Shown one piece after another: positions 4,281-32,730 of a DNA stretch of 64,000 nt. How positions within the stretch are numbered: position 1 is the first letter of the stretch; each line of letters begins with the position of its first letter. This DNA is from a candidate division FCPU426 bacterium. Its GTDB lineage: Bacteria > Oederibacteriota > PGYV01 > Palsa-1178. Under the pieces are notes generated by a model. It saw only the letters and a list, made by a program, of their open reading frames with translations, did not search any database and was not told the DNA's origin. The translations under genes were made by a program, and so were the position numbers. The stretch lies in the NCBI GenBank assembly GCA_003159495.1, contig PLPI01000054.1:8409-72408 (forward strand), written 5' to 3'.

Positions 4281-4283
4281 CGG

Positions 4284-5497: not shown

Positions 5498-5589
5498 CAT
5501 GTAACAATGTGCCGTTTTTAGACGGTACAAAAGAATGAGCGTCTGAAGAATTTGTTGGTTTTTAATTTCAAAAATATAAAGGAGAAAAC

Positions 5590-6615: not shown

Positions 6616-6655
6616 TTTTTTTGGCGAACTATAACTATAATACAGGAGGTGTTTT

Positions 6656-7222: not shown

Positions 7223-7234
7223 CGGTAATATTCA

Positions 7235-8107: not shown

Positions 8108-8146
8108 AACAGAGCAACTTTTTACTTCAGGTATTGTCTAATATAA

Positions 8147-8222
8147 CGGAGATGGAAAAGAGTAATTATATAAAGCTCCCTCACCTTTTAGATAATACTC
8201 TTTCTTCATCTCCGTTTTTTTT
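8147..8222 (+). terminator. Long-stem intrinsic terminator after the M48 protease gene
   Basis: Imperfect inverted repeat cggagatggaaaagagta (8147-8164) / tactctttcttcatctccg (8196-8214) followed by T8. Confidence 0.45.
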
Positions 8223-8234
8223 AAATATGAAAAG

Positions 8235-8960
8235 CTATTTAGAGGCCGAATCACCCGCAGGCGCGGTGGAATCCTCTTCAAACGCAAAACCATAGCTGAT
8301 ATTAACCATCCATGTACCCAGGCTTTTGTACTGCTTATCAAGCGAATATTGCCCCGTAAAAACCGGGTTTATCTTTATGCCCGCGAATGTATAGCTTGCG
8401 CCGATAGTTCCGGCGGCGGCTGTAAATGACGGGGTATAGCCGTTATCCCCGAAATTGTATCCGGCGTTAAGCCCGCCGTTGATGCCGATTCCAAAAAATT
8501 CGAGCTCCTGCGATACGCCGAGTTCGGCGTATCCGCCTTTGCCGAATATGGGGTCGAAATAATATGAAATGTAGGGTTTTGACGGTACATCAACGCTTAA
8601 CGTGCCGAAGAGTTCATTGGATGTGAAAAGCACCGAGGGGTGCGTATAAATCCAGTAACCGGACGACGCGGAGAGAAGCGGTATAAAAGGGACGGAATCG
8701 GTGAAAGAGACCCTGTAATCAGATTCCTCGAAAAGTCCGGTGTCAATTGAGTAGGATCCCCACCAGTCAAGGGTGAATTTATTGAGCCCGACGGATACTC
8801 CGGGCTGGATGACGGGCGTGTCGGATAAAAGCTGGCCCCTCCAGAGATATCTTCCGGCAAAAGCGCCGTAAACGGTTCCGGAAATTCCGGCAAAAACAGG
8901 TGTCAGGGAAGTAAAAATGAGAGAGGCAACAAGGATTAAAAATAAGGAAAGTTTTTTCAT
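8235..8960 (-). CDS. Hypothetical secreted / outer-membrane beta-barrel-like protein
   Basis: Start placed at MKKLSLFLILVASLIF, a typical signal peptide. Alternating hydrophobic/aromatic Gly-rich pattern. No recognisable catalytic motif. Confidence 0.5.
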   Translation of the reverse strand: MKKLSLFLILVASLIFTSLTPVFAGISGTVYGAFAGRYLWRGQLLSDTPVIQPGVSVGLNKFTLDWWGSYSIDTGLFEESDYRVSFTDSVPFIPLLSASSGYWIYTHPSVLFTSNELFGTLSVDVPSKPYISYYFDPIFGKGGYAELGVSQELEFFGIGINGGLNAGYNFGDNGYTPSFTAAAGTIGASYTFAGIKINPVFTGQYSLDKQYKSLGTWMVNISYGFAFEEDSTAPAGDSASK

Positions 8961-9137
8961 CAGAACCTCCGCGCAAGTAAGGTTAACAGCCTTTCCTATA
9001 ATATAGCATGTCTTAAAGCACAGGTCAATCTCCCGGCCGCCCGGATCTTCCATAATTTTTGCCTTTATTTATTTAAATGTTGATTATACCCGTTTCTGGC
9101 TGTATACTTTATTTGTTAATCAAACAGGCAGGAAAAA

Positions 9138-9419
9138 GTGAATAAAAAACTAATAAAAACAGCTGCTTTAATTTTAATATTGATTGTTACGTTTGCCGTT
9201 GCGGTTACGGCATTGCATCACCATGTCCGTGCCCATGACGGGGACAACTGCAAAATATGCTCTTTTATAATGGTTTTTACCGCGGCCGTCATACCGGCCG
9301 TAATATTGTTCCTTGCCGCCAGGGTATTTTGCGGCATGATTTTAGTCCCGGGAGAAGCAATATGTTCCGCGGAAAAGAGTTTTAACGTATCCCGTGCCCC
9401 TCCTTTTATTACAGCCTGA
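9138..9419 (+). CDS. Small two-TM membrane protein with a His/Cys-rich loop
   Basis: 93-aa ORF, GTG start with RBS. Motif HHHVRAHDGDNCKIC between two hydrophobic helices. First gene of the ABC transporter operon. Confidence 0.4.
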   Translation: MNKKLIKTAALILILIVTFAVAVTALHHHVRAHDGDNCKICSFIMVFTAAVIPAVILFLAARVFCGMILVPGEAICSAEKSFNVSRAPPFITA

Positions 9420-9545
9420 AGCCCCATATTCAATTAAATTCCAATATTAATATATAATACATTTTTTTTGTATTTATATAATTATATTTATATTATTTAT
9501 TGCTTCAAAAAAAGGTATTTATTACCATGGAGGATTTGCATAAAA

Positions 9546-10232
9546 ATGAAAATACTTGAAATGAAAAACATAAAGAAAAGCTACCGTTCGCCCGAAGGCG
9601 GGACCAACGACGTCATCGACATAGCAGAATTCAGCGTTGATGAAGGGGCGCAGGCTGCAATTGCCGGCGAGAGCGGGTCGGGAAAGACAACTTTTTTAAA
9701 CCTTATCGCGGGTATATTGCGGGCCGATGAGGGGAGTATCAGCATAGCCGGAAGGGATATGGAAACACTTACCGAAGGCGAACGCGACCTTTTAAGGGCG
9801 TCAACTATCGGTTATATTTTTCAAACTTTTAACCTTCTCCAGGGATACACGGCCATTGAAAACGTAATGCTTGGCATGATGTTCGGCCCCGGCGCGGACC
9901 GCGCGGCGGCGGAATCCCTGCTTGAAAGGGTGGGGCTTGAAAAACATTTTAATTACCTGCCAAGGCAAATGTCCGTCGGGCAGCAGCAGCGCGTTGCCGT
10001 GGCAAGGGCCCTGGCGAACCACCCGAAACTTGTGCTGGCGGATGAACCCACGGGGCACCTCGACCACAGGCGGGCCATGGAATCCCTTAAATTAATCAAG
10101 GATATCTGCATGGAAAAAGGGGCGGCGTTACTGCTCGTCAGCCATGACCGCGACGTCCTTTCAAGTTTTAAATCCGTAAAGGACCTCTCATCAATTAACA
10201 GGGCTGAAAAGGAAGGGGTGCAAAATGTTTAA
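9546..10232 (+). CDS. ABC transporter ATP-binding protein (MacB/LolD/FtsE-like)
   Basis: Walker A GESGSGKTT, signature MSVGQQQRVAVARAL, Walker B LVLADEPTGHLD. Confidence 0.85.
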   Translation: MKILEMKNIKKSYRSPEGGTNDVIDIAEFSVDEGAQAAIAGESGSGKTTFLNLIAGILRADEGSISIAGRDMETLTEGERDLLRASTIGYIFQTFNLLQGYTAIENVMLGMMFGPGADRAAAESLLERVGLEKHFNYLPRQMSVGQQQRVAVARALANHPKLVLADEPTGHLDHRRAMESLKLIKDICMEKGAALLLVSHDRDVLSSFKSVKDLSSINRAEKEGVQNV

Positions 10233-11493
10233 AAAAATAAGCACACTTTTTTTTCTAATAAGCCACAGCATGAAACAGCACGCCCTTTCTACGGCCATAA
10301 CAATACTCTCCGTCGCAATGGCAACCGGCCTTACGATGGCGGTTTTTTCCATGCAATACCAGACACGTACGGCTTTTACCGGAGGGACGGCTGGATTTGA
10401 CGCTGTGCTTGGAGCCAGGGGAAGCCAGCTTCAGCTTGTGATGAACGCCGTCTACCAGCTGGAAACATCGCCGGGAAATATCCCATGGTCGCTGTATCAG
10501 GCGGTTAAAAACGACCCGCGCGTCAAGCTTGCGATACCTTACGCGGTGGGTGACAATTATTTCGGGTACAGGATAGTCGGCACCACGGATGATATTTTCA
10601 CAAAATTTGAATACCAGGCAGGCAAACATTTTACAGTCAGGCCGGGCGGGAAATATTTTGACCCTTCAAAGAGGGAAGCCGTCATAGGAAGTTATGTGGC
10701 GGATAAGACCGGATTAAAGGAAGGCTCGCAGTTCAAACCCTATCACGGCCTGTACTTTGACCCAAAAATGCAGCATGACGAGATTTTTACAATTACAGGA
10801 GTTATGGAGCCGACAAACACGCCCTCTGACAGGGTAATCTGGATACCCATAGACGATGTTTACAGGATGAAGGGGCATGTCCTGCGCGGCAGCGGGACCG
10901 AATATACCGCCACCGAAGGAAAAGAAATACCGGATGCCGTAAAGGAAGTAAGCGCTGTAATGCTGAAATTTTACAGCCCGCAGGCCGGGTTCATGCTTGA
11001 CCAGACGATAAACAAACAGGGCCGTGTGGCCACTCTTGCCTGGCCCATCGGAAGGGTCATGGCTGATTTCTTTGACAAACTCGGGTGGGTTTCAAAGATA
11101 CTCGCGCTTGTTGCCTATCTTGTAATGCTTGTGGCCGGCGCATCGATACTCGCCAGCCTGTATAATACGATGAACGAGCGCCGCAGGGAATTCGCCATAT
11201 TGCGCGCCCTGGGCGCAAAACGCTCGAATGTATTTTCCTCGATAGTACTTGAGGCGGCGGTTATCGCCGGAGCCGGGTCAATAGCGGGATATATTGTTTA
11301 TTTTATTGTTTTCGCCTTTGCCTCGCTTATCGTCAGGCAGCAGACGGGAGTTGTCCTTGATATTTTCCGCATGCATTTTTCAATGCTCGCGGTGCCTGTC
11401 GGAATGACGCTGCTCGGCGCGGCTTCGGGGCTGATACCGGCTTTAAAGGCTTATTCCACAGATGTGTCAAAAAATCTGGACCCGATGTCGTAA
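10225..11493 (+). CDS. ABC transporter permease, FtsX/MacB-like, with a large periplasmic domain
   Basis: N-terminal TM helix, ~250-aa extracytoplasmic domain, C-terminal three-TM FtsX-type module. Overlaps the ATPase gene stop. Confidence 0.8.
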   Translation: MFKKISTLFFLISHSMKQHALSTAITILSVAMATGLTMAVFSMQYQTRTAFTGGTAGFDAVLGARGSQLQLVMNAVYQLETSPGNIPWSLYQAVKNDPRVKLAIPYAVGDNYFGYRIVGTTDDIFTKFEYQAGKHFTVRPGGKYFDPSKREAVIGSYVADKTGLKEGSQFKPYHGLYFDPKMQHDEIFTITGVMEPTNTPSDRVIWIPIDDVYRMKGHVLRGSGTEYTATEGKEIPDAVKEVSAVMLKFYSPQAGFMLDQTINKQGRVATLAWPIGRVMADFFDKLGWVSKILALVAYLVMLVAGASILASLYNTMNERRREFAILRALGAKRSNVFSSIVLEAAVIAGAGSIAGYIVYFIVFAFASLIVRQQTGVVLDIFRMHFSMLAVPVGMTLLGAASGLIPALKAYSTDVSKNLDPMS

Positions 11494-20951: not shown

Positions 20952-21590
20952 TTATTCAAATGCTATATCGGAAACCGCGATATTGACAGTGTCGCCGTCC
21001 GGGCTTGAAAAATGGAAGTTGATGTTATGCGCATTTTTCAGGACTTCTTCGATCGGAAATGTCTTTTTTGCCCATTTAGGCTGTTTTAAATCTTCCCTGA
21101 GATCGATTTTTACGGTCTCGCCGTCTTTGGAAAGGTATTTATTCAAGGCAACCTCGTAATCCGCATAGTCAGTCAGGCTTTTTGCGGTTTTTGCATCCTG
21201 CTGGCATTCGTTCGCGGAATAAGGGATTGCAAGCGTAAGGCGTCCGCCGGAAATAGAACCCTTGATTTTAAATGAAAGGGTCTTGTAGCCGGTTAAATCA
21301 ACGGGAACTGCCCCTTTTCCCTCGTAGCATCCGCATTTTTCTCCAAGCGTCAGCCCCATGCCGATATAGTCCCAGCCGAGTTTGTTGCCTGTTTTGCCCG
21401 ACATTTTTCCCGGCGTGAAAGTAACCTCTGAATTGCCGCCGCTGGACGAGTCGTTGTAGGAATACCACCATCCTCCGCATGCCGCCGGGTTCTTATCCGG
21501 GGTGTTGTCAACTATAAACTTATTCCCCGCCAGCACTGCCGCGTACATTGCAAGAACAATTACCGTAGCCATTACAAATGCTTTTTTCAT
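20952..21590 (-). CDS. Secreted beta-sandwich (carbohydrate-binding-module-like) protein, paralog of the anti-sigma sensor domain
   Basis: Signal peptide. Shares WxYNDSxxGGNS, DYIG, SLTxYADY and IDxRxDLxQP motifs with the C-terminal domain of the CDS at 21620-22456. Confidence 0.5.
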   Translation of the reverse strand: MKKAFVMATVIVLAMYAAVLAGNKFIVDNTPDKNPAACGGWWYSYNDSSSGGNSEVTFTPGKMSGKTGNKLGWDYIGMGLTLGEKCGCYEGKGAVPVDLTGYKTLSFKIKGSISGGRLTLAIPYSANECQQDAKTAKSLTDYADYEVALNKYLSKDGETVKIDLREDLKQPKWAKKTFPIEEVLKNAHNINFHFSSPDGDTVNIAVSDIAFE

Positions 21591-21619
21591 CTGAAACGCC
21601 TCCTTTGAAGTTTTTGTTT

Positions 21620-22456
21620 TTAATAAAATTCAAGCCTGTCTATCCAGATATCAACCCTGCGGCCGTTGCCGTTCATATACTGCCATTTAATAATATTGGC
21701 GTCGGACAACACATCCTCGATGGAAACCAGATATTCCGGTTTTGTCCCGGCCGGCTGTCTTAAATCTTTCCTGAAGTCGATCTTTACCTTTTTCCAGCGC
21801 GGGGTAATGTATTTTGTGATATCCGCCCCGTAATCGGCATAGCTGGTCAGCGACCTGCAGATGCCGCGTGAGGCGTCTATCCGGCGCGATTCGTGCGGCA
21901 GCATGAAAATAACATTTCCGGCAGTGACCGAACCTTTTATCATGAACTCAATACCGCTGAATTTTGAAAGGTCTATGCCGACGCATTCGGGGCAGGTTGA
22001 GTGGGGGCTTAAAAAAGTAGTTACCCCTATATAATCATCGCCGAGTTTTGTGCCGGCTGTTCCCGTTATCCTTACGGCGTAGCCTTTTCCCGTGCAGCCC
22101 GGGGAACTTTTTACAAAGCTGTTTTCGCCGTTCTTTGAGGCCGGCGGCCAGACGACGGAATTGCCGCCCTGCCAGCTGTCGTTATATGTGCACCACACCC
22201 CGCCGAGTTCGTTGACACTGCTGTTGGTGTAATTATAATCTATCCTCATATAATAAGCCGCGGCCGCGACGACGAATATAATGGCATATACAGGCATAAG
22301 GCGCATGAATATGTGTGGCATCCCGGAGGCCGAAGAGGCTTTTTTTATGAGGGCGGCCCTTAACTTTGACATATTTTTTTCCAGGCCAATATTCCCGAAT
22401 TCGATCTTATCACTTTTCATTTTATAAGCCCTCGCTTTCATTTTTCCCTGCGTCAT
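21620..22456 (-). CDS. Putative anti-sigma factor: short cytoplasmic N-terminus, one TM helix, extracytoplasmic CBM-like sensor domain
   Basis: Lies immediately downstream of, and overlapping, the ECF sigma gene. TM segment LMPVYAIIFVVAAAAYY. C-terminal domain paralogous to 20952-21590. Start codon uncertain. Confidence 0.5.
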   Translation of the reverse strand: MTQGKMKARAYKMKSDKIEFGNIGLEKNMSKLRAALIKKASSASGMPHIFMRLMPVYAIIFVVAAAAYYMRIDYNYTNSSVNELGGVWCTYNDSWQGGNSVVWPPASKNGENSFVKSSPGCTGKGYAVRITGTAGTKLGDDYIGVTTFLSPHSTCPECVGIDLSKFSGIEFMIKGSVTAGNVIFMLPHESRRIDASRGICRSLTSYADYGADITKYITPRWKKVKIDFRKDLRQPAGTKPEYLVSIEDVLSDANIIKWQYMNGNGRRVDIWIDRLEFY

Positions 22457-23060
22457 ATATAATGCCCGCGGCCGGATTTGGTTGCATTGAACCTCTTATC
22501 ATTGAAAGGCCGCGTGAAAGGATGGATTTTACAGTCCCCGCCTTTTTATTGAGCGCGGCGCTTATTTCGGATATCTTCATTGAATCAAAAAATCTCATGG
22601 AAAGGACTTCCTGGTAAAGCGGGGGAAGCTTTACCAGTTCCGCATGCACAAGAGCGAAAAGGCTGTTATTGTCTATTGCCTTCTGGGCGTTTTCAAGTTC
22701 CTCGTTCAGGCTGTTTGAGGAGCGCGGCTCGTAAGACGGTGAGTTTTCTATCAGCTCGTCAAGCGAAGCGGGCGCATATTTTTTTGACCTGAAATACATG
22801 TTAACTTCATTTGAGGCTATCCTGTAAAGCCATGCCGAAAACGACGCGCCCCGCCACCTGAACTGCCAGAGTTTGTTAAGGGCCTTGAAAAAAGTTTCTC
22901 CCGTTATGTCTTTGGCCGCTTCGGCATTGCCGGTGCGGTATGCCGCGTATTTTAATATTTTTAAGTGATAAAGGTCGAATAAAGCGCCAAAAGCGGCCGG
23001 ATCGCGCCGCGCCGCCTCGACCATTTCTTTTTCACTGATTTTATCCAAAGCCGCCTCCAT
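22422..23060 (-). CDS. RNA polymerase sigma-70 factor, ECF subfamily
   Basis: Region 2 (FGALFDLYHLKILKYAAYRTGN...AEDITGETFFKA) and region 4 HTH (LPPLYQEVLSMRFFDSMKISEISAALNKKAGTVKS). Start placed at MEAALDK. Confidence 0.8.
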   Translation of the reverse strand: MEAALDKISEKEMVEAARRDPAAFGALFDLYHLKILKYAAYRTGNAEAAKDITGETFFKALNKLWQFRWRGASFSAWLYRIASNEVNMYFRSKKYAPASLDELIENSPSYEPRSSNSLNEELENAQKAIDNNSLFALVHAELVKLPPLYQEVLSMRFFDSMKISEISAALNKKAGTVKSILSRGLSMIRGSMQPNPAAGIIYDAGKNESEGL

Positions 23061-23330
23061 AATTATGCTTTCATTATTATACAATGCACGGAGTAAAAAA
23101 AGGTTGCAAAATTCGGTGCCGCCCGGTATGTCGGCCCGGCTTGTGCTCGGTTGTTGCCGTGCGGGCGGAACTTTTTTAAGGCCGTCGTCCAAGTTTGCTT
23201 TAATGCCCGGTAAGAACATTGTTATTAAAGTTTTACCTCTGCTTAATTGACACGGTTCTTATTGTTGGACGCCAGCCATAAAAAAGTCCCGCCCGCACGG
23301 CACCAGGGTTACCGCATTTTCGCCCCTCTT

Positions 23331-23404
23331 AGGGGCCGGCTCATATGCCGGCCAGAACCAGCTCACAACCTCAATTTGTGAGCCGGCGCAAGGTTCATTA
23401 TTAA
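23331..23404 (+). repeat. GC-rich palindromic REP-like element R1, a 74-bp direct repeat of R2
   Basis: aggggccggctcatatgccggcc...gctcacaacctcaatttgtgagccggcgcaaggttcattattaa. 65 of 74 positions identical to 23747-23820. Internal palindromes ggccggc/gccggcc and gctcaca/tgtgagc. Confidence 0.6.
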
Positions 23405-23526
23405 TATTTATCCGGAACATTAGGCCGCGTAAAATGCGTCTAATATATCAAAGAGGAGTGAAGGTGCAGACTTTTATTTAAGCGGTATAACGGGTAAAAT
23501 GAAAGGAAAGGAAGGTGTGAAAATTA

Positions 23527-23708
23527 TGGAAGGAAAAAGGGATTACAGCGAGAAAGAGTCGAAAATAGAGGGAATAATGAGGACTTACAGTTTTGGCCGA
23601 AAAGCCGCTGAAAGAATATACGCCATGATAAAGGATACTGACATATTAAATTCTAATTTTCTGGATATTACGGATAGTGACCGCGATAAGGGACAAAAAA
23701 CAATGTAG
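23527..23708 (+). CDS. Small hydrophilic hypothetical protein flanked by the R1/R2 direct repeats
   Basis: 60-aa ORF with RBS AGGAAGGTG 8 nt upstream; an upstream in-frame ATG at 23499 would give 69 aa. No recognisable motif. Confidence 0.3.
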
Positions 23709-23746
23709 CGGGACACGCCGTTGGCTTGCCGTGTTTTTGTTTTCGT

Positions 23747-23820
23747 AGGGGCCGGCTCATATGCCGGCCCGAACCAGCTCCCAACCACATTTTATGCACA
23801 GGCGCAAGGTTCTTTATTAA
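23747..23820 (+). repeat. REP-like element R2, direct repeat of R1, fused to T-motif copy 5
   Basis: 88% identical to R1. Immediately followed by aattgtacttattggttttgcc (23835-23878). Confidence 0.6.
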
Positions 23821-23834
23821 CTTAAATAATTTTA

Positions 23835-23878
23835 AATTGTACTTATTGGTTTTGCCTTTTAGCCTTTACCTTATATTT
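23835..23878 (+). repeat. T-motif repeat copy 5
   Basis: aattgtacttattggttttgccttttagcctttaccttatattt. Same head-plus-tail arrangement as the element at the window start. Confidence 0.55.
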
Positions 23879-24054
23879 AAACAAAACAAACACTCCCTTA
23901 ACCAACCGTTATTTTATCTGTTTTTTAATTCTGCCTGTAAAATATTTACAAAAATCACAATGTTAGTTTTCACACACATTAATAAACACCTTAAAATAAA
24001 GGGTTTTATTGTATTGAACCATGTGGAAAATGGCTGATTTAACCCAAATTAGCC

Positions 24055-24083
24055 TTGACAGTGGCAGACAGGGGGGGTAAAAT
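24055..24083 (+). promoter_or_regulatory. Sigma70-type promoter of the mraZ/dcw operon
   Basis: TTGACA (24055-24060), 17-nt spacer, TAAAAT (24078-24083). Confidence 0.5.
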
Positions 24084-24091
24084 AGAGAAAA

Positions 24092-24126
24092 GTGGGATAA
24101 AGTGGCATGAAATGGATTGAAATGTC
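24092..24126 (+). promoter_or_regulatory. Putative MraZ operator: four direct repeats at 10-bp periodicity
   Basis: GTGGG-ataaa-GTGGC-atgaa-ATGGA-ttgaa-ATGTC immediately downstream of the promoter. Resembles the GTGGG-N5 direct repeats bound by MraZ in E. coli. Confidence 0.5.
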
Positions 24127-24224
24127 GTGCCGCCGGCCTATTTTATATAGCGCCTGTTTTAGGGGCAAGCTCTAATTATTTTGGATGAATTGGAGCCAAT
24201 TATAAATTTTGAGGTGAAAACGAA

Positions 24225-24656
24225 GTGGTAATAAAAACAGGTTTTGTGGGAAATTTCCGCCATAACCTTGATGTGAAAAACAGGGTTTCTCTGCCCGCCA
24301 AGATAAAAAAGTATATCGAAGAAGTGGCGGAGTCTCCCGAATATTCTTCAAGGATAATGCTTGCAAAGGGCGGCGATTGCATAGAGGGATTTATGGTGGC
24401 CGACTGGCAGCGCATGGTAGAACAGGTGCAGCAGAACATGAGCTTTAAACGAAATGCCGGGGACGAGGAACTTGAAGAAATCGCAATGACGGCGGACCAG
24501 GTACAGATCGACAAAAGCGGCAGGATAATGATAAATGCGGAACTTAAAAAATGCGCTGAAATAGGGAAAAACGTGGTGTTCGTGGGGGCCATTGACAGGT
24601 TCAGGATATGGAGTGCGGAGAAGTTCGATGAAAAATACAACGGAGGCGGCAGATGA
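24225..24656 (+). CDS. mraZ: Transcriptional regulator MraZ
   Basis: Duplicated MraZ fold with DxKxR(V/I)SLP motifs. First gene of the dcw cluster. GTG start with RBS GAGGTG. Confidence 0.85.
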   Translation: MVIKTGFVGNFRHNLDVKNRVSLPAKIKKYIEEVAESPEYSSRIMLAKGGDCIEGFMVADWQRMVEQVQQNMSFKRNAGDEELEEIAMTADQVQIDKSGRIMINAELKKCAEIGKNVVFVGAIDRFRIWSAEKFDEKYNGGGR

Positions 24657-24994
24657 GCTTAAAGACGGAATCGAAAAAGGTTGTTGTCCTTATTTTGAGG
24701 GGAAATATCGACATTGAAGACATGCTGGCGCTGAAAGGCATAGTCACATCATTCATAGAAAAGGAAAATTTCTTTTTTATACTGGATTTCTCCGGTGTTG
24801 ACCATATAAATGTATCCGGCATCGAGTATCTGAATGAACGCAAAGAACGCTCGCGCACCATGGCCGGGGATGTGAAAATAATAGGCGCTTCCGATTATGT
24901 AAAAAATCTTTTCCTGTACGCGGGTTACTGGGGGGAATTCGACTTTTTCCCGACAGAGGAAGACGCGATAAAATCATTTGAAAATATAATATGA
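24653..24994 (+). CDS. STAS-domain protein (anti-sigma-factor antagonist-like) inserted between mraZ and rsmH
   Basis: 113 aa. LDFSGVDHINVSGIEYL matches the SpoIIAA/RsbV-type STAS core with a candidate phosphorylatable Ser. Translationally coupled to both neighbours by overlapping stop/start codons. Confidence 0.6.
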   Translation: MSLKTESKKVVVLILRGNIDIEDMLALKGIVTSFIEKENFFFILDFSGVDHINVSGIEYLNERKERSRTMAGDVKIIGASDYVKNLFLYAGYWGEFDFFPTEEDAIKSFENII

Positions 24995-25911
24995 GTTTCA
25001 GCCACAAAAGCGTCCTGCTGGCCGAGGCTGTGGATTTTTTAAAGGCGGCCGGCAGCAGCGGGGTTTTTGTGGATGCGACTCTCGGGCTTGGCGGCCACAG
25101 CGGCGAAATATTAAGGCGGCTCGCTCCACAAGGCCGGCTGATAGGCCTTGACTGTGATGACAGGAACCTGCGGGAAGCCGCTGAAAAGCTCAAAGGCTAC
25201 GGGAACTTCAGGGCAATCAAGGCGAATTTCAGGGATCTTGACGCTGTTCTTCAAAATGAAGGCATAGAAAAGATAGACGGAATACTGTACGACCTTGGAG
25301 TATCCAGCGCCCACTTTGACGACGCCGCCAGGGGGTTCAGTTTTTCCAAAGAGGCTCCGCTTGACATGCGGCTCGACCCGGGCGCGGCACTGACCGCATA
25401 TGACGTGGTCAATTCGTATAAAAGGCCGGATTTGGAGCGCGTTATCAGGGATTATGGCGAGGAATATAAATACAAAAAAATAGCCGATTTTATAATTAAC
25501 AGGCGGCCGATAGAAACGACATCAAAACTCGCGGAGATAACGGCCCTGGCGAAACGTGGAATGAAGGAAAAAATAGACCCGGCAACGAGGGTGTTCCAGG
25601 CAATAAGGATAGAGGTTAATGACGAACTGGGCGCGCTTAAGGAATCGCTTGAAAAGGCCGTGGGAATGCTTCAAAGCGGCGGGGTTATTGCGGTAATATC
25701 GTTCCATTCGCTTGAGGACAGGATAGTAAAAAAGTACTTCGCGCTGGAAGCGTCGGACTGCGTCTGCGAAAACAAAAGGATGCCGTGCACATGCGGCCAT
25801 GTGAAAAGGATAAATTTGCTGACAAAAAAGGCTCTCATACCGGGAGACGCCGAAACGGCGGAAAACCCGAGGGCCAGGAGCGCGAAGCTCCGGGCTGCTG
25901 TTAAAATTTGA
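24991..25911 (+). CDS. rsmH: 16S rRNA (cytosine1402-N4)-methyltransferase
   Basis: MraW family motifs (DATLGLGGHS, SAM-binding, C-terminal RARSAKLR). Confidence 0.9.
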   Translation: MSFSHKSVLLAEAVDFLKAAGSSGVFVDATLGLGGHSGEILRRLAPQGRLIGLDCDDRNLREAAEKLKGYGNFRAIKANFRDLDAVLQNEGIEKIDGILYDLGVSSAHFDDAARGFSFSKEAPLDMRLDPGAALTAYDVVNSYKRPDLERVIRDYGEEYKYKKIADFIINRRPIETTSKLAEITALAKRGMKEKIDPATRVFQAIRIEVNDELGALKESLEKAVGMLQSGGVIAVISFHSLEDRIVKKYFALEASDCVCENKRMPCTCGHVKRINLLTKKALIPGDAETAENPRARSAKLRAAVKI

Positions 25912-25921
25912 GGAGAAGAAA

Positions 25922-26314
25922 TTGAGCGCAAGCAGGAAATTTTTAAGGATGATGAACCCGGCCCACAGTTCTTCGGGCAGGCAGATGCCAAAGGGTATAA
26001 TCCCGAAACTGGCGATAAGTTTTATCCTGCTGTTCGTCTGCCTGTGGTTCGGTATTCAGGCAAACTCAAAACTCAACAGTGAAGTGGTGTTGCTCAAGGA
26101 CCAGTGCGACAAACTGCGCATACGCTCAAAAATACTGGATTACCAGCTTTCGTCCATGATGACAGCCGATAAGCTTGAGACAGTGGCCGTTGCCAGGTAC
26201 GGTTTTAAAAAAATAAGGGACGACCAGATAATCGTCGTCAGCAGGCAGGAACCATTAATGGATAAAATAATTGACGGTGTAAGGTCGATCTTTTCAAGGC
26301 AAAAGGACATTTAA
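25922..26314 (+). CDS. ftsL: Cell division protein FtsL-like
   Basis: Small bitopic protein (single TM plus coiled-coil/leucine-rich periplasmic segment) in the canonical position between rsmH and ftsI. Confidence 0.55.
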   Translation: MSASRKFLRMMNPAHSSSGRQMPKGIIPKLAISFILLFVCLWFGIQANSKLNSEVVLLKDQCDKLRIRSKILDYQLSSMMTADKLETVAVARYGFKKIRDDQIIVVSRQEPLMDKIIDGVRSIFSRQKDI

Positions 26315-26330
26315 AGCCGGGGAGTGAATT

Positions 26331-28445
26331 TTGGCGAACGACAAACATGACATTAACAGCAGGATAGAGATTATATATTTTGCGTTTACCGCGGTTTTTG
26401 TCGTTTTTGCGTTCCAGCTGGTAATACTGCAGGTGTTCCAGTACGGAAAATTCAGGGACCTGGCGCAGAAACAGCACCTTGAGACCGTGAAGCAGCAGAT
26501 TGGACGCGGTTCGATATTTACGGCCGACGGGAAAAAGCTGGCCATGTCAATCAAGGCATATTCCGTCTGCGCAAACCCGGGCGAGATAAAAAACAGGGCG
26601 GCCGTCGCGGATTATCTTTCAAAAAAGCTCGGCATAAGCAGGGCCGAAATATTTTCAAAGCTTAACACAAAAAAAGCATTTGTTTATATAGACAGAAAGG
26701 TGGATATAGACAAAGCGACATCGATATTTGACAGGGATATACCCGGCGTCTTTCCGCTTGTGGAGGAAAAACGCTACTATCCGCTCCAGGAAAACGGGGC
26801 AAATTTGGTGGGGTTTACCGGAATAGACGGCAACGGCCTTGAGGGGCTTGAAGGGTCCTTCGAAAAGTATTTACGCGGGAAGGTCGGGTTCATGCTGGTC
26901 AAACGCGATGTCAAGGGGCGCCCCATAATGACGGACACCGTGCAGGTAAAAAAAGCGGAAGCCGGCGGAGATCTTTATCTTACGATAGATTCAAACATAC
27001 AGTATTACGCACAGCAGGAACTCAAGACCGCGGTTGAGAAATACAAAGGCAAAACAGGCATGCTGGTGTCGCTGAATCCCAATACGGGCGCAATTTACGC
27101 GATGGCAAACTATCCGACTTTTAACCCGAATGATTTTAACAGGTACCCGGCGGAACTCAGAAAGAACAGGACCGTGACCGACGTTTTTGAACCGGGCTCG
27201 ACTTTCAAAATATTCACAATGGCGGCGATATTAAAGGACAGGCCGGCCGCATACAATGACAGGGTTTTTTGCGGAAACGGAAAAATGGCATTCGGCGACA
27301 GATGGGTGCATGACAATGAAAAACACGGATGGCTAACAGTACCCGATGTTATAAAATTTTCATCCAATATCGGCATGGTGGAGCTTGCCATGAAGCTCAG
27401 CAGGGACAGGCTTTATGATGAATATTCGGCTTTTGGATTCGGCAGGGAAACCGGTTCGGACCTTCCGGGAGAAGTAGGCGGAATTCTCCGCCCGGTTTCC
27501 CAGTGGGACGACTCGACAATGTCATCGATCCCTTACGGCCAGGAAGTGGCGGTAACGGCGGTACAGCTCGCGCGCGCTTATGCGGCTGTCGCAAACGGCG
27601 GATATTTGATAACCCCGTATATAGTTGACAGGGTGGTAAAGAACGGCTCGGTGGTGTACACGCACCCGCAGCCGCAGAAAGTAAAAATACTGGATGACGC
27701 GACCAGGGAGAAACTTATAAAAATGCTTGAAATGGTTGTTGAAAAGGACGGGACCGGAAAGAAAGCCGCTATGGCCGGCTACCAGGTTGCCGGAAAAACA
27801 GGGACGGCGCAAAAGCACAATCCAAACGGAAAGGGCTATGCTACGAATAAATACGTGTGTTCATTTATAGGATTTGTCCCCGCGGAAGATCCGCAAATAC
27901 TGACACTTGTCGTTGTAAACGAACCGGCTGCCATCTGGGCATTCGGAGGCGATGTGGCGGCGCCGGCCTTTAAAAATCTTTCGGGCGACATGATATCATA
28001 CCTTCACGTGGCCCCCGTCACCGGGGCGAAAACTTCGCCGCAGAACGCGGCCGCGGAAACAACGGTGAAAATGACTGATTTTTATATGAAACAGTTTACC
28101 GAGGCAAAGAGGGCGCTTTCGGCTGCATCGATAAAACTTGAAAAAATCGGCTACGGAAAAACAATCATAATGCAGAAACCCGCCGCAAATACTGAAATGA
28201 AAACGGGCGATACGGCGGTTGTATACCTGGCCGATACGGACGCAAAAGAAGGGCTGCGCATTTATATGCCGGACCTTAAAGGGTTGACCATAAGGAACGC
28301 CATAGAAATATTAAAGGTTTACGGGCTGAATGTAAAATGCGTAGGCAGCGGCACTGCCGTATCCCAGCAGCCAAACCCCGGTGTTGCGGTAAAAAAGGGA
28401 TCCGAATGCACGGTCAGCTTTGAACTTCAGGGGCGCCCGTTATGA
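26331..28445 (+). CDS. ftsI: Peptidoglycan D,D-transpeptidase FtsI (class B PBP) with two C-terminal PASTA domains
   Basis: STFK active-site serine motif (GSTFKIFT), SSN, KTGT. The last ~130 aa form two PASTA-like repeats. Confidence 0.85.
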   Translation: MANDKHDINSRIEIIYFAFTAVFVVFAFQLVILQVFQYGKFRDLAQKQHLETVKQQIGRGSIFTADGKKLAMSIKAYSVCANPGEIKNRAAVADYLSKKLGISRAEIFSKLNTKKAFVYIDRKVDIDKATSIFDRDIPGVFPLVEEKRYYPLQENGANLVGFTGIDGNGLEGLEGSFEKYLRGKVGFMLVKRDVKGRPIMTDTVQVKKAEAGGDLYLTIDSNIQYYAQQELKTAVEKYKGKTGMLVSLNPNTGAIYAMANYPTFNPNDFNRYPAELRKNRTVTDVFEPGSTFKIFTMAAILKDRPAAYNDRVFCGNGKMAFGDRWVHDNEKHGWLTVPDVIKFSSNIGMVELAMKLSRDRLYDEYSAFGFGRETGSDLPGEVGGILRPVSQWDDSTMSSIPYGQEVAVTAVQLARAYAAVANGGYLITPYIVDRVVKNGSVVYTHPQPQKVKILDDATREKLIKMLEMVVEKDGTGKKAAMAGYQVAGKTGTAQKHNPNGKGYATNKYVCSFIGFVPAEDPQILTLVVVNEPAAIWAFGGDVAAPAFKNLSGDMISYLHVAPVTGAKTSPQNAAAETTVKMTDFYMKQFTEAKRALSAASIKLEKIGYGKTIIMQKPAANTEMKTGDTAVVYLADTDAKEGLRIYMPDLKGLTIRNAIEILKVYGLNVKCVGSGTAVSQQPNPGVAVKKGSECTVSFELQGRPL

Positions 28446-31384
28446 AAAAAATGAACTTGAAAACCCTGCTTGGAAACTCCGGCTCATATACCGTTTTGCA
28501 GGGGGCCGCGGATATGGATATAACGGATATCGCCGAATCGGCTTCCACGGCGAAAAATGGATCCGTGTTTTTCTGCGTCCGGGGGATAAAAAAAGACGGA
28601 CATGATTTCATTCCGGAAGCGGTAAAAAACGGGGTATCCGCCATAATAGTTGAAAATGACGTAAGGGTAAAAGAAGGCACGGCGGTCATCAGGGTAAAAA
28701 ACGCCAGGGAAGCCATGTTTTACGCGGCTGACAAATTTTACGCCGGTGAAAAGAAAAAAGTCAGTGTGATTGCGATAACAGGGACAAAGGGAAAGACCAC
28801 GGTATCGTATCTTATAGATGCGCTATTAAAGCAACAGACGGGCCGGGAAAACGCCGTGGTAGGAACCATAGGATACAGGATAGGAAAAAAACATTATCCC
28901 GCCGGCAATACCACGCCTTCAAATATAAAGGTTCATAAGCTTATAGCCATGGCCGCGCGCGCCGGGATAAAATATTTTATCATTGAGGCGTCCTCGGAGG
29001 CGCTTGACCAGGGCAGGCTGAGGAATATTGATGTGGATTCCGTTGTGGTTACGAACGTCACCAGGGATCATTTTGATTACCATAAAAATTTCGCCAATTA
29101 TCTGAAGGCAAAAATGATCGTGATATCGAACATGAAAAAGGGCGGAAGGTTTGTCGTCAATATCGACTCGAAAGGCAGCAGGGAAATGGTTGCCGGGGCG
29201 CGGGCGAAAACCGCGGACATTATTACATGCTCGACTAAAAAAAAGGCCGGCATAAGGCTCCTGAAATATTCGCTGGATATCAAAGGCACGGATTTTACGC
29301 TGGATGTAAAGGGAAAGAAGATGGAAATATCGACGGAACTTGTGGGCATGCATAATATTTACAACATTATGTCGGCTATAGGCGCGGTTAAGGGGATAGT
29401 ATCCGGGAATAATATGATAAAAGCACTGGCTGATTTCAAAACTGTCGACGGCAGGCTTGACAGGGCATACAGCGGGGAATTTGACGTTATTGTGGATTAT
29501 GCGCATACGCCTGATTCGATGGAAAAAACACTGACTGCGCTCAACGCCCTGAAAAAGGGGCGGGTTATAACGGTCTTCGGAGCCGGCGGCAACAAGGACC
29601 GTGGAAAAAGGCCGTTGATGGGGGCCATCGCGGAAAAGCTCAGTGACGAGGTCATCGTGACATCCGATAACCCGCGCTACGAGGAACCCGGAAAAATAAT
29701 AGCTGACATTATGAATGGCGTCAGGCGGAAAAAAGATATCATGATAGTTCCCGACAGGAGGCTGGCCATTGCCGCCGCCGTAAAGAAAGCAGTTAAGGAC
29801 GATATTGTGCTCATAGCCGGAAAGGGCCATGAAACCTACCAGGAAATAAAGGGAAAAAGGCACCCGTTCGAGGACAAGAAGGTTGCACTTGAAATGATAA
29901 AAAAACACAGGGGCGTAAAAAAAATATATTTATCCGGGTTATTAAAAAACATGAATTACAGCTTGCTTTCGGGGGGCACGGAAATTGAAATAAAAGGCGT
30001 CGAAGATAATTCATGGAGGGTTAAAAAGGGATTTCTTTTTATAGCTGTAAAGGGATTTTCCCATGACGGCCATGATTATATCGCCGAAGCCGTAAAACGC
30101 GGAGCGGCCGCCGTGCTGGTTGAAAAAAAAGTCAGGGTGCGCGGCGCGGCTGTGATAAAGGTTAAAAATACCAGGGAAGCGCTGTTTGAGATTACGGACA
30201 GGTTTTTCAGCGGCACGAAGGGAAAAATAAAAATAATAGGCGTTACCGGGACAAACGGGAAAACCACGGCGGTTTACATGACGGACGGCATACTAAGGGC
30301 TGAATACGGCGGGAAGAACGCCGTTGCCGGAACCATAGAATACAAGGTCGGAAAAAACTATTATCCGTCCATTAACACAACGCCGTCGAACGTGATCCTT
30401 CACAGGCTCATAGAAGAGGCCGTGGGGAAAAAGTTGAAATATTTTATAATGGAAGTTTCCTCGCACGCGCTGGACCAGGACAGGATAAAGAATATCGAAC
30501 TTGATACCGCCGTTGTTACCAATGTAACGCGGGATCATTTTGATTACCATAAAAATTTCAGGAATTACCTCGCGGCAAAACTGAAAATAGTTGATGCGAT
30601 GCGGGAGGGCGGAAGGCTTGTCATAAATCTTGACGATGCCAGCTCCGGGAAATTCATCGCCGCCGCAAAAAAACGCCGGCTGAAAATACTGACATATTCC
30701 CTGAATAAAAAAAGGGCTGATATAAAGCCGGTCTCTTACAGCCTCGATATTAACGGCGTTACCGCGGAACTAGACATAAAGGGCAGCAGGGAAACGATAA
30801 GATGCAACCTTCCGGGCATTCATAATCTTTACAATATGATGTCAGCCGTTGGAGCGTGCCTCAACGAAGCCAGGATAAAATCGATAAAAAGAGGCATTGA
30901 AAACCTGAAAAGCGTGAACGGCAGGACCGAGATGGTTTATGACGGAAATTTTAAGGTGATGGTGGATTACGCGCACACGCCTGACGCGCTTGAACAGGTC
31001 CTTTCAACGCTTGCAAAGGTGAAAAAGGGAAGGCTCATAACCGTATTCGGGGCGCCGGGCAACAGGGACAGGGGCAAGAGGCCCCTTATGGGAAAAGTGG
31101 CCGAAAAACTCAGCGATACAGTGATAATAACTTCGGATAACACTGAAAATGAAAAACCAATGGACATAATAAACGAGGTTCTCGGAGGAGTCAGAAATCC
31201 CGGAAAGGCCGTAGTGGAGCCGGACAGAAGAAAAGCGATAAGGCTCGCAATAGGCGGGGCAAAACCCGGGGATGTGGTGCTCATCGCGGGCAAGGGCCAT
31301 GAAAAGTACCAGGACATTATGGGCAAAAAGTCAGCGTTCGAGGATAAAAACGAGGCGTTAAAAGCGCTGAAAGCGGCAAAATGA
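28442..31384 (+). CDS. murE: Tandem-fused double Mur ligase: two complete MurE-like modules in one 980-aa ORF
   Basis: Module 1 (aa 1-~500): P-loop GTKGKTT, DYAHTPD, GNKDRGKR, DNPR (meso-DAP-type). Module 2 (aa ~504-980, begins at an internal Met at nt 29951): P-loop GTNGKTT, DYAHTPD, GNRDRGKR, but DNTE in place of DNPR. No stop codon between the modules. Confidence 0.85.
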   Translation: MKKMNLKTLLGNSGSYTVLQGAADMDITDIAESASTAKNGSVFFCVRGIKKDGHDFIPEAVKNGVSAIIVENDVRVKEGTAVIRVKNAREAMFYAADKFYAGEKKKVSVIAITGTKGKTTVSYLIDALLKQQTGRENAVVGTIGYRIGKKHYPAGNTTPSNIKVHKLIAMAARAGIKYFIIEASSEALDQGRLRNIDVDSVVVTNVTRDHFDYHKNFANYLKAKMIVISNMKKGGRFVVNIDSKGSREMVAGARAKTADIITCSTKKKAGIRLLKYSLDIKGTDFTLDVKGKKMEISTELVGMHNIYNIMSAIGAVKGIVSGNNMIKALADFKTVDGRLDRAYSGEFDVIVDYAHTPDSMEKTLTALNALKKGRVITVFGAGGNKDRGKRPLMGAIAEKLSDEVIVTSDNPRYEEPGKIIADIMNGVRRKKDIMIVPDRRLAIAAAVKKAVKDDIVLIAGKGHETYQEIKGKRHPFEDKKVALEMIKKHRGVKKIYLSGLLKNMNYSLLSGGTEIEIKGVEDNSWRVKKGFLFIAVKGFSHDGHDYIAEAVKRGAAAVLVEKKVRVRGAAVIKVKNTREALFEITDRFFSGTKGKIKIIGVTGTNGKTTAVYMTDGILRAEYGGKNAVAGTIEYKVGKNYYPSINTTPSNVILHRLIEEAVGKKLKYFIMEVSSHALDQDRIKNIELDTAVVTNVTRDHFDYHKNFRNYLAAKLKIVDAMREGGRLVINLDDASSGKFIAAAKKRRLKILTYSLNKKRADIKPVSYSLDINGVTAELDIKGSRETIRCNLPGIHNLYNMMSAVGACLNEARIKSIKRGIENLKSVNGRTEMVYDGNFKVMVDYAHTPDALEQVLSTLAKVKKGRLITVFGAPGNRDRGKRPLMGKVAEKLSDTVIITSDNTENEKPMDIINEVLGGVRNPGKAVVEPDRRKAIRLAIGGAKPGDVVLIAGKGHEKYQDIMGKKSAFEDKNEALKALKAAK

Positions 31385-32730
31385 AAATTAATTTAAGCGA
31401 AATTTACAGGGTGTTTAACACAGGTTTTGAGGGCAGGGACGTGAGCGTTCCCGACATATGCACGGATACACGCACCCTTAAAAAAGGGGATGTATTTTTC
31501 GCCCTTATCGGAGACACCGACGGCCACAGGTATGCCGCCCAGGCTTTTTACAACGGAGCTTCGGCGATCATTGTTGAAAAATATGCCGAAGGCGTTGAAA
31601 CGGCAAAACAGATAAAGGTAAAGGACACGACGCGGGCGCTGCTGACGCTGGCCGCATATTATTACAAAAAATTCGGGAAATTAAAATGCGCGGCCGTCAC
31701 GGGAAGCAACGGCAAGACGACAACCAAGGAACTGCTTGCGGCGATGCTGTCCGAAAAGTACGAAACGCTTAAAAGCGAAAAAAGCTTTAATAACGCGATA
31801 GGGCTCCCGCGCACTGTTTTTAAGCTCAAGGATAAGTTCGACGCGGCTGTTTTTGAAATCGGGATGAACCATGCGGGCGAGATTAAAAATCTGGTTTCAG
31901 CCATCAGCCCGCGGGTGTCAATAATTACCAATGTTGGAAGGGCCCATATCGCTTTTTTCAGGGACGGCCTGAAGGGCATAGCAAAGGCCAAGGCCGAAAT
32001 TATGACGGGGATGGAGCCGGGCGGGGTTGTCGTGATAAACGCCGACGATGACTTTGCGGGTTTTATGGAACGGGAAGCCGCAAAAAGGAAGTTAAATACC
32101 GTGACTTTCGGGATAAAAAACAAGGCCGATGTAAGGGCCGTGGATATTGTAACCGCGGCTGACGGGACGTACTTTAAGGTTAACTGCCTTAAAGAAAGGT
32201 TTTTTACCGGGCTAAAAGGCGGGTATAACATTTACAACGCTGCAGCGGCGGTCGCTGCGGCCATGGCCTTCAAAGTGCCGGGAAAGTCCATAAAAAATGC
32301 GCTGGCCGGATTTAAGATGGAAGGGTTCATGAGGTTTGAAAAGGTCAGGCTGAAAAATTCGGTGCTGCTGATAAATGACTGTTATAACGCAAACCCGGAT
32401 TCTTTTTCCGCCTCCATAGAGGCGTTGAAAAAAGAGGGGTATAAATCTGTGGTGGCGGTCATGGGCGACATGCTTGAACTGGGTAAAAGCTCGGCCGCAA
32501 TGCACATTGAGATAGGAAAAAAGTTCAGGGAAATTCCGCTGAAAAACTTTTTTGTTTACGGCAAATACTCCGGACAGGTAAAAAAAGGATACGGGGAAAA
32601 AGCGCGCGTTTACACCGACAGGGAAAAACTGTCACGCGTCCTTAAGCAGGCGGTGGAGAAGGGCGATACTGTTTTTGTAAAAGGCTCCAGGGGAAACAAA
32701 CTTGAGGAAATTGTGGAAGTATTAAAATAA
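31381..32730 (+). CDS. murF: UDP-N-acetylmuramoyl-tripeptide--D-alanyl-D-alanine ligase
   Basis: MurF-type N-terminus, P-loop GSNGKTT, position in the dcw cluster. Confidence 0.85.
   Translation: MKINLSEIYRVFNTGFEGRDVSVPDICTDTRTLKKGDVFFALIGDTDGHRYAAQAFYNGASAIIVEKYAEGVETAKQIKVKDTTRALLTLAAYYYKKFGKLKCAAVTGSNGKTTTKELLAAMLSEKYETLKSEKSFNNAIGLPRTVFKLKDKFDAAVFEIGMNHAGEIKNLVSAISPRVSIITNVGRAHIAFFRDGLKGIAKAKAEIMTGMEPGGVVVINADDDFAGFMEREAAKRKLNTVTFGIKNKADVRAVDIVTAADGTYFKVNCLKERFFTGLKGGYNIYNAAAAVAAAMAFKVPGKSIKNALAGFKMEGFMRFEKVRLKNSVLLINDCYNANPDSFSASIEALKKEGYKSVVAVMGDMLELGKSSAAMHIEIGKKFREIPLKNFFVYGKYSGQVKKGYGEKARVYTDREKLSRVLKQAVEKGDTVFVKGSRGNKLEEIVEVLK

Follow-up and report, generated by a model that had tools for sequence, protein, structure and literature searches.

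The division and cell wall (dcw) gene cluster in a 64,000-nucleotide stretch of DNA from a candidate division FCPU426 (Goldbacteria) bacterium (contig PLPI01000054.1; the whole 64-kb stretch is called the window here) carries a gene for a small STAS-domain protein between mraZ and rsmH. We found that the arrangement mraZ-STAS-rsmH heads the dcw cluster in at least eight phylum-level groups including Goldbacteria and that, as far as alignments can tell, loss of the phospho-acceptor residue of SpoIIAA-type antagonists tracks closely with this mraZ-rsmH context. We lean, by a small margin over even chances, toward reading the protein as a phosphorylation-independent binding module that is expressed from an MraZ-controlled promoter, has MraZ or RsmH as its likeliest partner, and represents a distinct and widespread dcw-linked STAS clade. 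The fold and the superfamily were already known; the new element is a STAS clade that has lost its switch residue and occupies a widely conserved position within a classic operon. Full-text searching turned up no literature in which STAS proteins or anti-anti-sigma factors are connected to mraZ, rsmH or the dcw cluster, and a published account of dcw synteny does not mention them, although an earlier mention is possible.

An earlier reading of the window, made from the sequence alone, had described a 113-residue open reading frame (ORF) that overlaps both of its neighbors. Both junctions are indeed ATGA: the STAS start codon shares bases with the mraZ stop codon at 24653-24656, and the STAS TGA shares bases with the rsmH ATG at 24991-24994. 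The three genes are as follows.

24225..24656, plus strand: mraZ, 143 aa, GTG start; PF02381, E=8e-19, two repeats
24653..24994, plus strand: STAS-domain protein gene, 113 aa, ATG start, isoelectric point (pI) 4.75, single domain
24991..25911, plus strand: rsmH (mraW), 16S rRNA m4C1402 methyltransferase, 306 aa; PF01795, E=1e-103; TIGR00006, 326 bits against a cutoff of 154

Fold and phospho-acceptor position

The STAS protein matches Pfam PF01740 with 44.6 bits (E=1.3e-11; gathering cutoff 22.6) over residues 5-105, which cover model positions 5-106 of 106. The sequence-only reading had staked its assignment on such a profile match, and the match is significant. The AlphaFold2 (AF2) model built on the family alignment (pLDDT 88.5, pTM 0.80) has the STAS strand-helix pattern, with a strand at residues 10-19, a helix at 21-36, a strand at 41-52, a helix at 54-69, a strand at 73-77 and helices at 81-89 and 102-109. 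Its best PDB match by Foldseek is SpoIIAA in complexes with SpoIIAB (template modeling (TM) score 0.81; 1thn_B, 1tid_B), followed by RsbS, RsbV and the STAS domains of SulP/SLC26 proteins. The model and the Foldseek matches both place the protein in the STAS fold, defined by strands and helices that alternate as in SpoIIAA. A SpoIIAA/RsbV-like core, as first proposed, is thus borne out, with SpoIIAA the best solved match by sequence as well as by structure.

We next compared the family with SpoIIAA at the residue level. The family profile aligns to the SpoIIAA sequence with E=1.8e-8, ungapped over approximately residues 40-107, and pairs Phe55-Met-Asp57-Ser58-Ser59-Gly60 of SpoIIAA (1auz, 1th8, 1tid) with His51-Ile-Asn53-Val54-Ser55-Gly56 here, within the motif LDFSGVDHINVSGIEYL (residues 44-60). 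Asn53 pairs with Asp57, Val54 with Ser58, and Ser55 with the non-acceptor Ser59. The 1TID chain has Ala in place of the first Ser of the otherwise matching 1TH8 chain, and this first Ser of the pair we take to be the SpoIIAA phospho-acceptor Ser58. In our model helix 2 starts at residue 54; SpoIIAA helix 2 starts at Ser58. The codons concerned are:

24803..24820, plus strand: His51-Ile52-Asn53-Val54-Ser55-Gly56, end of strand 3 and start of helix 2, with Val54 at the position of SpoIIAA Ser58

The serine of 'NVSG', which the sequence-only reading had put forward as a candidate phosphoserine, therefore falls on the non-acceptor Ser59, the acceptor position being Val54. Position 54 is Val, Ile or Leu in all 37 Goldbacteria sequences aligned, and no acceptor corresponding to SpoIIAA Ser58 or RsbV Ser56 is present at the helix 2 N-terminus. 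Because position 54 is not Ser here, in Goldbacteria or in the dcw-linked relatives described below, a phosphorylation-driven partner switch appears unlikely. The public labels 'anti-anti-sigma factor' and 'anti-sigma B factor antagonist' on these genes are doubtful, since the acceptor residue is missing. All 22 clade members of our alignment A4 match the NCBIfam model TIGR00377 (ant_ant_sig; cutoff 53.45) with E<=0.001, one of them at or above cutoff; scores are 37.3 for the window protein and 60.9 for a Binatia-type protein (L049). The model is a superfamily-level one and carries no information on the phosphosite. None of the more specific NCBIfam models was above cutoff for these 22 members.

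Acceptor loss and genomic context

To see how far the altered acceptor extends, we searched 1.84 billion cluster representatives with HMMER. The Goldbacteria family is a single full-length representative at 208 bits, and the next full-length matches reach at most 107 bits. Among the best 150 representatives, 148 other proteins contributed 196 aligned domains, from which 49 were chosen as having His51 and neither Ser nor Thr at position 54; His51 is by that choice invariant in them, and position 54 is mostly Tyr, Leu or Phe. All but one are in proteins of at most 150 aa, and they share the stretch GGD-L-K-L-x-G-x-S-x-Y-L-x-x-I-F-x-x-x-G, which lies outside the selection. The remaining domains are mostly canonical, with Tyr or Phe at 51 (Tyr in 94 and Phe in 23 among the best 150 representatives) and Ser at 54. 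One of the retrieved proteins (P0055), 35% identical to the window protein, is encoded between MraZ and a truncated RsmH on its contig (L030) and has a cluster mate named Thermodesulfobacteriota; another (P0054) is not between mraZ and rsmH and lies beside a SIMPL-domain gene.

We then scanned metagenome contigs with a degenerate DNA pattern for positions 42-91, which requires His51, Gly72, Asp or Glu at 73, Gly91 and hydrophobic positions and leaves position 54 and the neighboring genes free. In validation it recovered 27 of the 49 His-type representatives and 1 of the 147 other domains. The scan returned at least 120 loci, and all of their ORFs were profile-searched for STAS, MraZ and RsmH. 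Among the 120 loci listed, 85 carry MraZ-STAS-RsmH on one strand, 12 MraZ-STAS followed by the contig end, six STAS-RsmH preceded by the contig end, and two a partial arrangement, giving 105 dcw-linked loci with GC contents of 27-75%; 15 have neither mraZ nor rsmH as neighbor. The dcw-linked sequences form at least 21 clusters at 55% identity.

Position 54, which the pattern leaves free, is Tyr in 67, Phe in 21, Leu in 13, Val in two, Ile in one and Thr in one of the 105 dcw-linked loci listed, and never Ser, whereas it is Ser in 13 of the 15 unlinked ones. All 105 have His51, which the search pattern required; our alignments A1, A2, A4 and A5 show no variation at this residue either, A2 having itself been selected for His51. 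We define the clade by His51, a non-Ser hydrophobic or aromatic residue at 54, G-[DE]-hydrophobic-[KR] in strand 4, [YF]82 and G91, where H51, G72, [DE]73 and G91 were imposed by the pattern and 54, K75 and Y82 were free. The window protein carries this signature (H51, V54, G72-D73-V74-K75, Y82, G91), and its gene lies between mraZ and rsmH on the same strand.

The survey also turned up variant arrangements. In one lineage a tandem STAS pair lies between mraZ and rsmH, and its upstream copy has Ala at the acceptor position and no His51. These loci are:

L124, 3997-4687: tandem STAS pair
L132, 7515-8197: tandem STAS pair
L147, 217-947: tandem STAS pair
L127, 108-865: tandem STAS pair
L080, 2-630: tandem STAS pair

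The two non-Ser exceptions among the unlinked loci are L129 and L043. In L129 (5593-7700) a STAS gene with Met54 and an N-terminal extension starts at the stop codon of a gene for a 550-aa ParB_N + HTH_ParB protein, with neither mraZ nor rsmH nearby; L043 is a phage locus taken up below. The next-best profile matches, P0051, P0052, P0053 and P0056, are proteins of 700-1600 aa with three canonical Ser-bearing STAS repeats each, joined in P0051 and P0053 by Pro/Ser/Ala-rich linkers; P0051 ends in a hydrophobic segment.

Conservation within Goldbacteria

A search of 5.8 billion proteins yielded 49 full-length relatives with identities of 66-100%; almost all have a length of exactly 113 aa, and those with names belong to Candidatus Goldbacteria/Goldiibacteriota (FCPU426) genomes. 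Their alignment has 28 invariant columns. The ORF was intact in every relative retrieved, which was the other point on which the sequence-only reading had allowed itself to fail; a seeming disruption in one locus (L025) is a run of 10 N and not a frameshift. The order mraZ-STAS-rsmH-ftsL-PBP (penicillin-binding protein) was found in 26 of 26 Goldbacteria loci, which represent 20 GTDB species representatives. The scan of genome contigs that contributed to this count used family-specific peptide patterns, so that it returned only Goldbacteria and is uninformative on absence elsewhere or on Goldbacteria without the gene.

Across Goldbacteria species, identity to the window protein is 65-96% for STAS, and the corresponding values are 33-92% for MraZ, 49-83% for RsmH and 46-81% for the PBP. 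Nonsynonymous divergence (pN) is 0.17 for STAS, 0.34 for MraZ, 0.30 for RsmH and 0.31 for the PBP, with synonymous sites saturated in all four genes (pS about 0.8; 0.83 for STAS). The STAS gene is under strong purifying selection and is the most constrained of the four genes compared in Goldbacteria.

Taxonomic spread and inheritance

Profile searches with dcw-linked sequences returned 723 clusters at E<=1e-10 and 488 at E<=1e-8 (clusters at 90% identity). Named members come from Myxococcus stipitatus DSM 14675, 'MULTISPECIES Myxococcus', Candidatus Binatia, 'Deltaproteobacteria RIFCSPLOWO2', Candidatus Acidoferrales (a genome labeled as Acidobacteriota), Nitrospirota, Thermodesulfobacteriota, the candidate divisions WOR-3 and TA06, and FCPU426/Goldbacteria. 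The named proteins are 74-100% identical to dcw-linked metagenome clusters, except that from Thermodesulfobacteriota (49%), whose cluster mate P0055 has a dcw context of its own in L030. M. stipitatus contigs have MraZ-STAS-RsmH-FtsL. The sequence-only reading had taken the gene for an unusual local insertion; instead, the order is maintained throughout the phylum and is found again in at least seven further phylum-level groups.

Pairwise STAS distances are correlated with RsmH distances (r=0.81) and MraZ distances (r=0.86; Mantel p=0.001), consistent with the trio having been inherited together. Between phyla the mean distance is 0.70 for STAS, 0.61 for MraZ and 0.54 for RsmH, which makes STAS the most divergent of the three, while within Goldbacteria it is the least.

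A copy in a Mu-like phage

In L043, a contig listed in IMG/VR as a viral genome, a Binatia-type STAS gene with Tyr54, 67-71% identical to dcw-linked Binatia-type host genes, has neither MraZ nor RsmH nearby and lies between MuB-like and Gam genes. The locus (same contig as L153, IMGVR_UViG_3300027872_000020; 1619-9716) reads:

1619-3256: Mu-type transposase
3253-4464: MuB-like transposition ATPase
5289-5672: STAS-domain protein
6399-6938: Gam
9237-9716: endolysin

The MuB-Gam region of phage Mu holds non-essential host-interference genes, such as kil. Although it is a single case, the phage copy fits a host-manipulating protein that binds a division-related host component. The DNA pattern gave no match in viral contigs, even though the L043 contig is among them and was matched by protein search, and no informative phage STAS structure was found in BFVD (viral) structures.

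Operon organization and neighboring genes

The remaining features of the operon and its upstream region are listed here.

22422-23219, minus strand: extracytoplasmic function (ECF)-type sigma factor gene, 1 kb upstream of mraZ
24055..24083, plus strand: promoter-like site of the mra operon, TTGACA-17 nt-TAAAAT, 11 of 12 consensus positions; a consensus match alone
24092..24115, plus strand: candidate MraZ-binding repeats, GTGG-N6-GTGG-N6-ATGG with a 10-nt period, just 3' of the -10 element; read from the sequence
24642-24646, plus strand: GGAGG Shine-Dalgarno (ribosome-binding) site for STAS translation, placed 6 nt upstream of the start codon, within the 3' end of mraZ; read from the sequence
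25922..26314, plus strand: ftsL/divIC-like gene; PF04977 (DivIC), E=4.7e-5, below the gathering cutoff, with position also used for the assignment
26331..28445, plus strand: division transpeptidase, an FtsI-class PBP with PASTA domains (PF03717, PF00905, PF03793)
42611-43735: ftsZ, further along the dcw cluster; cluster content from public contigs

The promoter-like site is the best within 23200-26400. The repeats next to it fit the GTGGNNNNNNGTGG probe for MraZ-binding repeats (bioRxiv 10.1101/2022.02.09.479790) and are kept in the nearest relatives, L007 and L008. No intrinsic terminator or terminator-like site and no promoter above chance was found between mraZ, the STAS gene and rsmH, in agreement with the earlier suggestion that the gene is transcribed with its neighbors, and a search of the region upstream of mraZ against Rfam gave nothing above chance. 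Virtually every orthologous locus has a GGAGG-like site a few nt 5' of the STAS ATG. The ATGA overlap of STAS and rsmH is kept in almost all of the 26 Goldbacteria loci, and the mraZ/STAS junction is variable. In the metagenome trios (85 in the 120 loci listed), the STAS stop codon overlaps or abuts a possible rsmH start in 32, and STAS-RsmH spacing is tighter than MraZ-STAS spacing, with medians of 38 versus 118 nt between hidden Markov model envelopes.

The MraZ protein matches TIGR00242 with E=1.4e-21, under the trusted cutoff, and an identical 143-aa mraZ call is present on public contigs. Public contigs with identical proteins supply the remainder of the dcw cluster: Mur ligases, mraY, murD, ftsW, murG, murC, murB, ddl, ftsQ, ftsA, ftsZ and an amidase. 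Downstream of the PBP gene, two complete Mur-ligase units are fused in one 980-aa protein (28442-31384), with a third Mur ligase next (31381-32730); distant Goldbacteria have a single 491-aa Mur ligase after the PBP and not the fused pair. On an 805-kb Goldbacteria contig (L003, 5657-7770; ERZ25039512 contig_13) the division PBP is two overlapping ORFs of 304 and 404 aa, a frameshift or a sequencing error.

Upstream, the ECF sigma gene opens a minus-strand block (20952-23219) that continues with genes for 278-aa and 212-aa proteins without a Pfam match, possibly its anti-sigma partners. The block is placed between a SpoU methylase gene and mraZ, and the upstream ECF gene of L026 is 47% identical. 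The ECF sigma gene and mraZ are separated by a 1-kb spacer that holds a 69-aa ORF (23499-23708) without a Pfam match, flanked by a 78-nt direct repeat of 87% identity (23327-23404 and 23743-23820) with only these two copies in the window. Each copy opens with the hairpin GGGGCCGGC-TCATAT-GCCGGCC, and the repeat has no Rfam match.

We considered the ECF sigma operon as a partner of the STAS protein and rejected it. Only the window species and close relatives have the block; most Goldbacteria loci lack it, so its distribution does not follow that of the STAS gene.

A proposed role and its alternatives

In the explanation we favor, the MraZ-controlled mra promoter would drive synthesis of the STAS protein in parallel with MraZ and RsmH, with translational coupling to RsmH in Goldbacteria. 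The clade retains a SpoIIAA-like fold and conserves the strand 3/helix 2/strand 4/helix 3 region, with the Ser acceptor replaced by a hydrophobic or aromatic residue and an invariant His three residues upstream. The protein would act as a phosphorylation-independent protein-binding module, with abundance or a ligand, in place of a kinase/phosphatase pair, setting its activity. MraZ or RsmH, encoded in the same module, would be its likeliest partner, as gene position suggests, and the STAS protein may tune MraZ repression of the division genes, RsmH activity, or both. The analysis establishes that the gene is real and establishes its fold, acceptor loss, synteny across phyla, purifying selection and place in the operon; protein binding, the partner and an effect on division are inferred from these; the acidic pI argues against direct nucleic-acid binding.

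Overexpression of mraZ blocks division through repression of its own operon, co-expression of mraW/rsmH relieves the MraZ division block in E. coli, and the role of MraW 'remains unclear' according to the B. subtilis MraZ preprint (bioRxiv 10.1101/2022.02.09.479790). Because it is encoded between the two, the STAS protein is a natural candidate to mediate or modulate this MraZ-RsmH relationship. A bolder version holds that MraZ-STAS-RsmH is an old three-part module in which STAS bridges or antagonizes MraZ and/or RsmH, explaining the link between them, that E. coli and B. subtilis, having lost STAS or never had it, could not bring this link to light, and that the Mu-like phage copy plausibly interferes with host division control. 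We regard this version as possible but tentative, and would not expect it to hold in full.

Several observations weigh against the phosphorylation-independent, MraZ- or RsmH-binding module. The partner is guessed from where the gene lies. Within Goldbacteria Ser55 hardly varies, and it may undergo non-canonical phosphorylation there. The kinase and phosphatase searches described below cover this 64-kb stretch only. In Myxococcus there are gaps of approximately 85 nt between mraZ, STAS and rsmH, and tight translational coupling is therefore not universal. Shared ancestry by itself would produce the mirror-tree correlation, and the faster divergence of STAS between phyla does not demonstrate a shared interface. 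Finally, among 457 retrieved proteins searched by hmmsearch with profiles for MraZ and RsmH, none fuses STAS to either.

The alternative that survives best, though we think it unlikely, is a phosphorylation-independent antagonist or adaptor whose target, an anti-sigma factor or other regulator, is encoded elsewhere, with placement in the mra operon only coupling its dosage to growth and division. STAS antagonists use this fold and this conserved helix 2 face, which would suit such a protein, as would the lost acceptor, and members with a hydrophobic acceptor position do occur outside the dcw cluster (L129 after the ParB-like gene, the L043 phage copy, and P0054). There is also a precedent in M. 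tuberculosis RsfA, an anti-anti-sigma factor under redox and not phosphorylation control. However, an unlinked target poorly explains why the gene keeps a fixed position between mraZ and rsmH, often with a stop/start overlap, over at least eight phylum-level groups and GC contents of 27-75%.

A classical partner-switching anti-anti-sigma factor, served by an unlinked RsbW/SpoIIAB-type kinase and PP2C phosphatase and acting on a sigma factor tied to division-operon expression, is improbable in our judgment. In its favor, SpoIIAA and RsbV complexes are the closest matches by sequence and structure, TIGR00377 matches throughout A4, Ser55 sits beside the canonical site, and an ECF sigma gene lies 1 kb upstream. 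Against this, Val occupies the acceptor position here, and 104 of the 105 dcw-linked loci listed have a hydrophobic or aromatic residue at it (Thr in the other), while the unlinked ones mostly keep Ser; position 55 is not conserved across the dcw-linked clade (Leu, Thr, Arg, Ala, Lys, Ser or Asn); and the TIGR00377 score of the window protein is below cutoff. No HATPase_c gene for an RsbW/SpoIIAB-type kinase was found among the called genes in approximately 62 kb of the window or in the flanks of related loci, and no SpoIIE/PP2C (PF07228-type) phosphatase among the same called genes of the window. The sequence-only reading had stated that no partner kinase or anti-sigma factor is encoded nearby: the kinase part stands, and the anti-sigma part must be qualified by the ECF sigma gene and its two uncharacterized companions. 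That ECF operon is species-specific, and STAS partner switching is not, to our knowledge, a usual mode of control for ECF sigma factors.

We give similarly little weight to a small-molecule sensor, in which a nucleotide, anion or other ligand near His51 and the aromatic residue 54 would feed metabolic state into operon output. An invariant His51 in place of the Tyr or Phe of canonical antagonists, and Tyr or Phe at the acceptor position of most members, could form such a site, and ligand or nucleotide binding has been reported for SpoIIAA and for the STAS domains of SulP/SLC26 transporters. The protein has no recognizable nucleotide-binding motif, however, and sensing is compatible with, and not exclusive of, a protein-binding module.

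Very improbable is an MlaB-like accessory subunit that binds and stabilizes an ABC-type ATPase, for example FtsE of FtsEX. NCBIfam mlaB_1 gives weak matches to the window protein (E=9e-4) and to five of the 22 clade members (down to 4e-6), but all scores are far under cutoff (19.6 bits against 90 for the window protein with NF033618), the window gene has no mla neighbors, and none of the loci examined has an adjacent ABC ATPase gene; the window's only ABC pair (9468-11493) is of the MacB/FtsX type and 13 kb away. That the ORF is spurious or decaying and without function, for which only its small size speaks, is a negligible prospect already refuted by conservation, since 49 orthologues of near-constant length, pN of 0.17 against pS of 0.83, a conserved ribosome-binding site, a confident STAS fold and the highest conservation of the four genes compared in Goldbacteria confirm that 24653-24994 is a real protein-coding gene.

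Significance and comparison with known systems

Few bacterial gene arrays are as well studied or as conserved as the dcw cluster, and why a DNA-binding repressor, MraZ, and a 16S rRNA methyltransferase, RsmH, always head it is still puzzling. The STAS gene is a testable candidate for a missing MraZ-RsmH link because it lies between mraZ and rsmH in many phyla and, in Goldbacteria, is constrained and often coupled to rsmH; Myxococcus, which is in culture, would be a tractable host for such tests. If the three-part module is true, it would supply a molecular basis for the unexplained functional link between MraZ and RsmH. An acceptor-less STAS subfamily also cautions against automatic annotation as 'anti-anti-sigma factor'.

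Among known systems, SpoIIAA and RsbV (PDB 1AUZ, 1TH8, 1TID, 6M36) are alike in being acidic single STAS domains of approximately 110 aa with the same topology and a conserved strand 3/helix 2 junction. They differ in having an acceptor Ser (S58/S56), where the window protein has Val and the clade Tyr, Phe or Leu; an Asp before the acceptor, where Asn is found here; and an aromatic residue three positions upstream, where the clade has an invariant His. The dcw-linked gene is also not beside a kinase/anti-sigma or sigma gene and instead sits between mraZ and rsmH. The stressosome proteins RsbS and RsbR (PDB 6JHK, 7B0U) share the STAS fold (TM 0.82 to RsbS), and the dcw lineage with tandem STAS genes recalls their STAS-STAS assemblies. 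RsbS and RsbR are phosphorylated on Ser/Thr by RsbT and encoded with rsbT, whereas here there is neither an RsbT-type kinase gene in the window nor an acceptor residue.

Two further STAS systems work without a phosphorylation switch. MlaB, the small STAS subunit of the MlaFEDB lipid transporter, works without phosphorylation by stoichiometric partner binding; it has weak profile similarity to the window protein and differs in that the latter scores far below the MlaB cutoff, has no adjacent mla or ABC genes and has unlike conserved motifs. The C-terminal STAS domains of SulP/SLC26 proteins are structurally close (Foldseek probability 1.0, TM 0.7-0.8) and are likewise not phosphorylation switches, but they are fused to a membrane transporter, whereas the protein described here is a free-standing cytoplasmic protein in a division operon.

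The mra operon of E. coli and B. subtilis (mraZ-rsmH-ftsL-ftsI) resembles that of the window in its flanking genes, their order, and the promoter and GTGG repeats upstream of mraZ. In those two species mraW/rsmH directly follows mraZ (bioRxiv 10.1101/2022.02.09.479790), whereas in Goldbacteria and the other clades listed above a third conserved gene, encoding the STAS protein, stands between them.

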